A DNA stretch of 64,000 nt from a phage. The number at the start of each line of letters is the position of its first letter. Position 1 is the stretch's first letter. The translations under genes were made by a program, and so were the position numbers. Positions 43,486 through 43,521 of the stretch are shown in pieces. The stretch lies in assembly GCA_036253055.1 (NCBI GenBank), contig GCA_036253055.1_4124.1. One strand, 5' to 3'. The notes beneath the pieces were generated by a model. The model did no database searches, had not been told where the DNA came from, and worked only from the letters and a program-made list of their open reading frames with translations.

Positions 43486-43521
43486 ATTATAGCAAAAAGG
43501 GCTGACCGAAGTCAACCCTTT
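43486..43521 (-). promoter_or_regulatory. combined terminator hairpin and promoter: -35 TTGACT inside a UUCG-loop hairpin, -10 TATAAT 18 nt downstream
   Basis: Minus strand AAGGGTTGAC-TTCG-GTCAGCCCTT then TTTTTGC TATAAT; repeated at 45665-45688, 46947-46970, 51443-51465, 52529-52550, 54106-54128, 54288-54311, 57530-57551. Confidence 0.5.

Follow-up and report, generated by a model that had tools for sequence, protein, structure and literature searches.

Promoter-early stem-loops (PeSLs) were described in the T4-like phages RB49 and phi1, where a stem-loop may overlap the -35 box and a Shine-Dalgarno sequence (SD) and an ATG come next (Arbiol et al. 2010, PMC2839356). In lacZ fusions, these elements acted as a strong promoter and terminated transcription to a degree comparable to rrnB T1, and recombination between their copies yields indels and mini-circles (PMC2839356). 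They were also reported as "composite promoter-terminator motifs" for PST/T4 and nt-1/KVP40, with an nt-1/KVP40 consensus of A3-4G3-loop-C3T3-4, a -35 of TTGYVH, and a -10 of TAWWAT (Comeau et al. 2014, PMC4122927). Here, we analyzed a hairpin repeat in a 64,000-nt stretch of phage DNA (contig GCA_036253055.1_4124.1; hereafter the window), the index copy of which lies on the minus strand at 43524-43486. An initial annotation had proposed that this hairpin ends the upstream transcript and at the same time supplies the -35 of the next promoter. We found that the sequence-level predictions of this dual reading all hold, and the analogous RB49/phi1 elements have been confirmed by lacZ fusions (PMC2839356).

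Between 43000 and 47000, the window is 100% identical, in reverse orientation, to Escherichia phage 121Q (NC_025447.1, Asteriusvirus, 348.5 kb), a Rak2-like jumbo phage. Identity is about 99.6% over 37.9-59 kb, and the match turns mosaic in the RCC1-repeat region and over the leftmost 14 kb, of which 121Q covers only 70% at 97% identity. By this comparison the window comes from 121Q or a very close relative, and our genome-wide census comprises the window and the rest of the 121Q reference. Asteriusvirus is placed in Caudoviricetes with no family, and the T4-like relatives that we examined belong to Straboviridae; 121Q shares T4-like core genes (gp17-, gp20-, gp23-, and gp43-like). The searchable literature holds no description of PeSLs for Rak2-like phages: promoters go unmentioned in the RaK2 paper, and a jumbo-phage review does no more than cite the PeSL paper. 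Hairpins orthologous to those of the window are annotated as ARNold terminators in the GenBank record of phage G17, and GGGTTGACTTCGGTCAGCCC appears three times under the same heading (Torf515, Torf518, and Torf520) in Table S8 of the CBB paper. Around the transcription start sites of the relative PA5oct, which relies on the RNA polymerase of its host, lie TTGAC/TATAATA promoters (PMC7318152); this makes the use of sigma-70 plausible here.

Copies of the repeat and their likeness to PeSLs

The repeat is laid out as an A-tract, a GGGTTGAC-UUCG-GUCAGCCC hairpin, a T-tract, and TGnTATAAT; the index copy contains TATAAAAAGGGTTGACTTCGGTCAGCCCTTTTTGCTATAAT, which splits as TATAAAAAGGGTTGAC-TTCG-GTCAGCCCTTTTTGCTATAAT. 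When up to 3 mismatches were allowed, GGGTTGACTTCGGTCAGCCC matched the window 11 times, always on the minus strand, compared to 0.00 matches expected from 100 shuffles. The looser pattern TTGAC-N3-6-GTCA returned 12 minus-strand copies, 8 in 43-58 kb (the right-hand group) and 4 in 3-12 kb (the left-hand group), and thereby recovered all of the 8 right-hand and 4 left-hand positions of the initial annotation (Table 1; copies are named by the first T of TTGAC). All 12 map to about 98.7-153.8 kb of 121Q, amid small hypothetical genes, with none elsewhere in its 348.5 kb; outside the window, the lone other TTGAC-N-GTCA palindrome of 121Q, at ~339.5 kb, is unrelated. The genes in 40-64 kb and 1-22 kb lie on the minus strand, and every copy lies on this gene strand and begins 0-23 nt past the stop codon of the upstream open reading frame (ORF). 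In all 8 right-hand copies, that stop lies 0-18 nt before TTGAC. At copy 57547, the stop TGA (57546-57544) of the upstream ORF, 121Q gene 191, sits within the -35 hexamer itself (T-TGA-CT), so the coding sequence extends into the 5' arm of the hairpin.

This arrangement shares with PeSLs the AT-rich upstream tract, sigma-70-like -35 and -10 boxes 17-18 nt apart, a stem-loop able to overlap the -35, and the SD and ATG, as well as the occurrence of many copies between small ORFs of plastic early regions, with none in the rest of 121Q. At the 3' end the likeness is partial: an SD and start codon close the 8 right-hand copies, whereas the 4 left-hand copies have a leader of 137-273 nt. Differences exist as well. 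The hairpin/-35 class shows only a weak association with indels. Five positions of the stem-loop are described for PeSLs, overlap with the -35 among them; in RB49/phi1, it lies mostly between -35 and -10 or over the -10, while in the 121Q type the -35 is always in the 5' arm. PeSLs were also described in T4-like phages, whereas the phage of the window is a Rak2-like jumbo phage (Asteriusvirus); residence in a T4-like genome is a historical, not a mechanistic, criterion for a PeSL. The KVP40-like phage phi-pp2 carries gaAAAGGGTTGACTGCGGTCAGCCCTTTcgcgTATTAT between two small genes, near-identical to the window element with the core AAAGGGTTGACTGCGGTCAGCCCTTTcgcgTATTAT, and the Aeromonas T4-like phage 65.2 carries the near-identical AAAGGGTTGACTTCGGTCAGCCCTTTTTGCTACTAT. 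Judged by these matches, the window element is a KVP40-type PeSL in all but name.

Other known elements resemble the repeat in part. Intrinsic terminators of the kind that ARNold calls in G17 and CBB have the same GC-closed stem of 9-14 pairs, UUCG loop, and T-tract just past a stop codon, but here the stem holds a near-consensus -35 and the T-tract runs into TGnTATAAT, which is rare in the ordinary terminators of the same genome. Sigma-70 promoters that have both an extended -10 and a proximal UP subsite, an established promoter architecture of Escherichia coli, likewise combine TTGACT and TGnTATAAT with an A-tract around -46 to -40; here, however, the spacer is mostly 18 nt, and the whole -35/spacer region is held self-complementary. 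Lambdoid morons are also single genes bracketed by their own transcription signals, but their promoter and terminator are separate, stand at opposite ends, and do not form a conserved repeat (PMC2839356).

Constraint on the promoter boxes and the hairpin

TTGACT stands at the upper end of the hairpin's 5' arm, 18 nt from the -10 in six right-hand copies and 17 nt from it in copy 54123 and all four left-hand copies. The -10 hexamers are TATAAT (four copies), TATTAT (four copies), TATGAT, TATCAT, and TATACT, so that 11 of the 12 copies match the consensus at 5/6 positions or better, and an extended -10 TG is present in 9 of 12. The proposed distance of 17-18 nt between TTGACT and a -10 thus stands in 11 of 12 copies and fails in copy 52546, where the best hexamer is TGTAAA (4/6). 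In the right-hand group, an SD and a start codon follow, with a predicted 5' untranslated region of 20-25 nt (42 nt at 54123). Across the 121Q genome, a -10 of at least 5/6 followed 11 of 13 TTGAC-hairpin readings (85%), compared to 21 of 146 other terminator-like hairpins (14%). The ten highest-ranking promoter-like sites of 42-59 kb, all of them on the gene strand, include four copies with 11/12 promoter matches plus TG. At copy 51460, the annotated start of the downstream protein kinase gene (121Q gene 205) is the ATG within the predicted -10 (T-ATG-AT; 51436-51402 region). Since an SD (GAGGA) precedes the ATG 33 nt downstream, at 51402, at the usual distance, we regard this second ATG as the more likely start.

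The same spacing recurred in IMG/VR, which was scanned completely with two 18-mers. A -10 of at least 5/6 accompanied GGTTGACTTCGGTCAGCC in 39 of 52 distinct contexts, 16 of them with a spacer of 17 and 23 with a spacer of 18; spacers of 16 or 19 did not occur. TGn was present in 35 of the 39 contexts having a -10, while the sequence further downstream differs between contexts. Because terminators need no TGnTATAAT at a fixed distance, its position at 17/18 nt marks the element as more than a terminator and supports selection on the -10 and TG besides the hairpin. The 14-mer TTGACTTCGGTCAG was rejected as an IMG/VR probe in favor of the 18-mers, as ~80% of the matches listed fell by chance in coding DNA and lacked a stem. 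In one unrelated IMG/VR contig of 118,833 nt, the hairpin recurs several times and is followed by CTGGCAT or GTGGCAC, not TGnTATAAT, which may represent a variant promoter context.

The stem comprises 9-14 pairs, is GC-closed, and has a predicted energy of -12 to -19 kcal/mol; 45-nt windows have folding energies between -14.1 and -19.6 kcal/mol (z -4.8 to -6.5), with no shuffle equally stable. U.G forms the fourth stem pair in 11 of the 12 window copies (GTCAG instead of GTCAA), and this form has 52 distinct contexts in IMG/VR, compared to 5 for the perfectly paired form. Since the wobble becomes a C.A mismatch in the antisense hairpin, folding of the opposite strand is weaker (-13.5 vs -19.5 kcal/mol on the sense strand). 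A comparison of 43 distinct copies, taken from the window and from other phages, shows variation at the six outer stem pairs (GGG/CCC, AGG/CCU, GGA/UCC, UGG/CCA, GCC/GGC, CCGC/GCGG, GGCCAC/GUGGCC, and others). The outer stem is nevertheless 97.3% paired, against at most 59% in slid registers, and contains 40 double-sided compensatory cells, a number reached in 0 of 500 shuffles; the non-window copies were chosen with at least 3 outer pairs, so the unbiased part of this result is the outer three pairs and the window copies. The loops include UUCG, UCCG, UACG, UGCG, GAAA, and GCGA and are mostly stable RNA tetraloops (UNCG, GNRA). The wobble, the loops, and the compensatory outer-stem changes point to selection acting on the sense-strand RNA.

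Behind the stem, 7 of the 8 right-hand copies have 5-8 T within an 8-nt tail, while the left-hand tails have 3-4 T only (TTTGC/TTTTGC), a weak form of the U-rich tract of roughly 7-9 nt that marks an intrinsic terminator. A terminator scan of the region called copies 52546, 57547, and 54123. By its structure, copy 52546 is probably a plain terminator only and is possibly bidirectional. Scans of the window with Rfam (gathering threshold) and for tRNAs gave no match, so the repeat elements and the left-hand leaders described below are not known RNA families and are not tRNA-linked. Together, the anatomy of the repeat, its non-random occurrence, the selection on its structure and on the -10/TG, and its positional context are seen directly in these genomes.

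Table 1. Copies of the hairpin repeat, parts of the index copy, and examples of the second repeat. Each copy is identified by the first T of TTGAC; positions refer to the window.
Feature	First T of TTGAC	Position	Strand	Hairpin and tail	-10 and spacer	Flanks and downstream
Index copy	43515	43486..43524	-	A-tract 43523-43519		upstream stop TAA 43536-43534; predicted +1 ~43479; SD GAGGA 43469-43465; ATG 43457
Index copy, 5' arm		43518-43511	-	GGGTTGAC; -35 TTGACT 43515-43510
Index copy, loop		43510-43507	-	UUCG
Index copy, 3' arm		43506-43499	-	GTCAGCCC
Index copy, T-tract		43498-43494	-
Index copy, extended -10			-		TG 43494-43493; TATAAT 43491-43486
Copy 2	45683	45654..45689	-	hairpin 45689-45664	TATAAT 45659-45654; spacer 18, TGn	stop TAA 45695; ATG 45627
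Copy 3	46965	46936..46973	-	hairpin 46973-46944	TATAAT 46941-46936; spacer 18, TGn	ATG 46907, denV-like endonuclease V gene
Copy 4	51460	51431..51467	-	hairpin 51467-51440	TATGAT 51436-51431; spacer 18, TGn	SD-supported ATG 51402, protein kinase gene
Copy 5	52546	52518..52552	-	perfect palindrome AAAAGGTTGAC-TTCG-GTCAACCTTTT, then 8 T	no good -10 (TGTAAA, 4/6)
Copy 6	54123	54095..54127	-	hairpin 54127-54106	TATACT 54100-54095; spacer 17, no TGn	ATG 54046
Copy 7	54306	54277..54312	-	hairpin 54312-54287; loop UAAG; weak, interrupted T-tract TTTGTTGT	TATCAT 54282-54277; spacer 18, no TGn	ATG 54247
Copy 8	57547	57518..57552	-	hairpin 57552-57529	TATAAT 57523-57518; spacer 18, TGn	ATG 57489
Left variant	12229	12201..12236	-	GTGGTTGAC-TCCG-GTCAGCCAT; T-tract 4	TATTAT; spacer 17, TGn	conserved non-coding leader ~166 nt, then second promoter
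Left variant	8205	8177..8212	-	GGGATTGAC-TCCG-GTCAGTCCC; T-tract 3	TATTAT; spacer 17, TGn	long leader
Left variant	5343	5315..5350	-	loop TCCA	TATTAT; spacer 17, TGn	long leader
Left variant	3417	3389..3424	-		TATTAT; spacer 17, TGn	long leader
Second repeat, + strand repeat copies, examples		2468, 3658, 4299, 5156, 8011, 8875, 9497, 11608, 12043, 12635, 12974, 13203

A proposed composite cassette and the rival explanations

We propose that the element is a PeSL-type cassette, one ~40 bp stretch read in two ways, and from its sequence and by analogy with the reporter-tested PeSLs we hold that both activities are probably real for most right-hand copies. As RNA transcribed from the upstream gene, the GC-clamped hairpin with its stable tetraloop and U-tract would form an intrinsic terminator or attenuator, and RNA polymerase would be released at the upstream edge of the -10 box, clearing the promoter rather than occluding it. 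As duplex DNA, the same stretch would be a host sigma-70 promoter in which the upper 5' arm provides the -35 (TTGACT), the 3' arm and T-tract make up the 17-18 bp spacer, and the next bases form the extended -10 (TGnTATAAT). The A-tract that lengthens the stem stands where UP-element architecture would place a proximal subsite and perhaps acts as one. In the right-hand group, transcription would restart ~7 nt after the -10 and proceed through the short leader and SD into a small gene. Since an RNA started there lacks the hairpin, the two functions would act on different molecules. The effect would be to insulate neighboring gene cassettes of the early region, cutting read-through from upstream and supplying a fixed, strong re-initiation, and the repeated 50-70 bp would also offer homology for cassette exchange. 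Termination, initiation, early timing, and host sigma-70 dependence are what we infer.

Several observations weigh against this interpretation. In several copies the U-tract reaches only 3-5 U before G/C follows, so termination may be incomplete, and the left-hand UUUGC variant may terminate poorly. Copy 52546 is without a good -10, and an 18-nt spacer is suboptimal. Promoter-like matches in 42-59 kb numbered 79, compared to 82.6 in shuffles, and a match to the consensus alone is therefore weak evidence in AT-rich DNA. Because the copies are paralogues, within-genome counts do not represent independent events. Finally, the MEME-based and RpoD-like promoter lists of CBB do not include these sites, and the searchable literature holds no mapping of transcript 5' or 3' ends for 121Q or any Asteriusvirus, nor did we find Term-seq or RNA-seq data on the phage.

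Some of these observations would be expected if the hairpins were terminators only and TTGACT and the TATAAT-like hexamer were incidental in AT-rich intergenic DNA. The ARNold calls at the hairpins of G17 and CBB, their absence from the CBB promoter table, the lack of overall enrichment of promoter-like matches over shuffles, and copy 52546, where a plain hairpin with perfect pairing precedes 8 T and a -10 is lacking, all fit such a reading. We nevertheless consider it quite unlikely, since 39 of 52 contexts carry a -10 at a fixed 17/18 nt from TTGAC, 35 of them with TG, and a nearby -10 is found at 14% of other terminator-like hairpins vs 85% here. An SD and ATG also follow 20-25 nt on in most right-hand copies, and analogous PeSLs were strong promoters in reporter tests (PMC2839356). 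The converse, a promoter only, whose inverted repeat would stabilize or mark a processed 3' end of the upstream RNA or be a by-product of repeat history, gains from the short or interrupted T-tracts of copy 54306 (TTTGTTGT) and of the four left-hand copies, and read-through is evidently tolerated where most early genes are packed without such an element. This reading is unlikely as well: in most right-hand copies, 5-8 T come straight behind the GC-closed stem with its 9-14 pairs, the hairpins stand 0-23 nt past stop codons, and the structure is kept by compensatory changes, stable tetraloops, and a sense-strand-specific U.G pair. In addition, the stem-loop of a PeSL cut downstream lacZ as much as rrnB T1 (PMC2839356).

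An inverted repeat over the -35 also occupies the classic position of an operator, and the phage has genes for sigma factors and regulators of its own, so TTGAC-N4-GTCA could be bound by a dimeric phage or host protein, or extrude as a cruciform, to switch an overlapping promoter, with the RNA hairpin being secondary. We find this hardly credible and rejected both the protein operator and the cruciform, as the half-sites are asymmetric (GTCAG, not GTCAA, in 11 of 12 window copies and in 52 vs 5 IMG/VR contexts) and the loops are of the RNA-stable tetraloop type. The outer stem, moreover, varies freely while its pairing is kept, and the element occurs in phages of unrelated families and hosts, which are unlikely to share one regulator. 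It is likewise very improbable that the main selected role is that of a portable homology cassette for recombination (PeSL-style shuffling, mini-circles), with the transcription signals carried along. Copies 43515, 45683, and 46965 are 92-100% identical over 48-70 nt between unrelated flanking genes, and homology between G17 and the window breaks exactly at 43522, the upstream edge of the index copy, where a two-gene module including an endonuclease gene is replaced. Only 1 of ~10 breakpoints in 41-49 kb touches a hairpin element, however, with most lying away from them, and the single-gene indels 46112-46504 and 47620-47914 have no element at their edges, so evidence that the hairpin/-35 class drives modular shuffling is weak. 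In the left region, 4 of ~7 breakpoints between the window and 121Q (7505, 7652, 8947, and 12709) fall no more than 12 nt away from the edges of another promoter cassette, the second class described below, in a pattern that resembles PeSL-style modular shuffling. The insertion 8947-9297 relative to 121Q is 350 nt long and holds one extra small ORF (8946-9269). Recombination alone would leave TGn, the -10 spacing, and the tetraloop selection unexplained, and a homology role is compatible with the composite cassette rather than exclusive of it.

Left-hand leaders and other repeats of the genome

The initial annotation held that the left-hand variant behaves in the same way as the right-hand copies. 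This applies to its core, which has the same hairpin, -35, and TGn-TATTAT, but not to its T-tract, which is weak (3-4 T), nor to what follows, as no gene starts directly downstream and a non-coding leader of 137-273 nt precedes the next ORF. These leaders, at 12200-12030, 8176-7900, 5314-5172, and 3388-3110 (minus strand), share the conserved boxes CCCACAGGGTGCA and GTATCTATTATAT and end in a promoter cassette of a second class before the next ORF. Each may therefore be part of a tandem promoter or contain an unannotated small RNA.

This second regulatory repeat is the more abundant in 2468-13280 on the minus strand, with at least 12 repeat copies and 17 promoter matches. It begins with an A-rich tract, AGTAC-TTGACA/TTGCAA, N16-17 (often ending AGTACTG), and TATAAT, and continues after the -10 with GTTTTACAT, the hairpin GGGGAGAA-N4-TTCTCCCC, an SD, and an ATG. 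Its hairpin lies downstream of the -10, in the 5' untranslated region, and is without a T-tract; it could represent a different PeSL subclass or a 5' mRNA stabilizer. Sigma-70-like promoters combined with still other hairpins occur in 121Q outside the window (about 61770, 74666, 75425, and 238009; also ~149182 in assembled coordinates). Examples include AGTACTTGACT-AAAT-AGTTCAGTACT before tRNA genes, AAAGCTCGTC-TATTGAC-GGGCTTT, and stems spanning the whole -35/-10 spacer, so the genome has several PeSL-like subclasses, as in RB49/phi1.

The palindromic hexamer AGTACT, with a consensus of (C)AGTACT(G), is by far the most over-represented hexamer of the window, with 267 occurrences compared to 20.9 +/- 5.1 expected (~13-fold, z ~74). 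It occurs across the whole window, e.g., in 1750-43084 and beyond; non-coding DNA, ~20% of the window, contains 41% of the sites, and those in coding DNA fall in all three frames. In 121Q the excess extends over the whole genome (4.6-12 fold), and it is also seen in other Rak2-like phages, while it is absent from KVP40-like and other contigs that we checked. We found no explanation for it in the literature.

Distribution among phages and meaning for Rak2-like genomes

A 57-nt query matched 176 phage records, led by phages of Vibrio (47), Escherichia (35), Aeromonas (23), Klebsiella (12), and Cronobacter (10). The module is present in near base-for-base form, U.G wobble included, in Asteriusvirus and other Rak2-like phages, KVP40-like and Aeromonas T4-like Straboviridae, Vequintavirinae, and the Herelleviridae phage Brochothrix A9. 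The exception as to the wobble is the Vequintavirinae phage PBES02, which has the perfectly paired form (GTCAA). Brochothrix A9, which has a Gram-positive host, carries stop-AAGGGTTGACTTCGGTCAGCCCTTTTGTTATTAT-SD-ATG with the same layout and U.G wobble, TGn-TATTAT at 17 nt, and a location between a DNA polymerase gene and a small ORF; two IMG/VR copies derive from its genome. A tentative possibility, which we find doubtful, is that AAAGGG-TTGAC-UNCG-GTCAG-CCCTTT-TGnTATAAT is a single module across unrelated phage lineages, either as a mobile regulatory cassette or as a convergent optimum, with the wobble as a device of functional asymmetry. Convergence and horizontal spread are equally plausible, since almost all bases of the module are under functional constraint. 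If this possibility holds, the conserved wobble would keep the sense RNA hairpin while weakening the antisense hairpin, a DNA cruciform, and an antisense -35.

The kind of cassette is already known and opens no new mechanism; the Rak2-like jumbo phages are a phage group in which it had not been pointed out. The finding extends PeSL-type overlapping cassettes beyond T4-like phages, and a compact module recurs in several phage lineages, one of them with a Gram-positive host. For engineering, it offers a natural insulator part of ~40 bp that would stop and restart transcription. For the Rak2-like phages themselves, annotation such as that of G17 and CBB lists these hairpins as terminators only. 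A class of probably strong early promoters is therefore missing from it, and so are the true transcription units to which dozens of small early genes belong.

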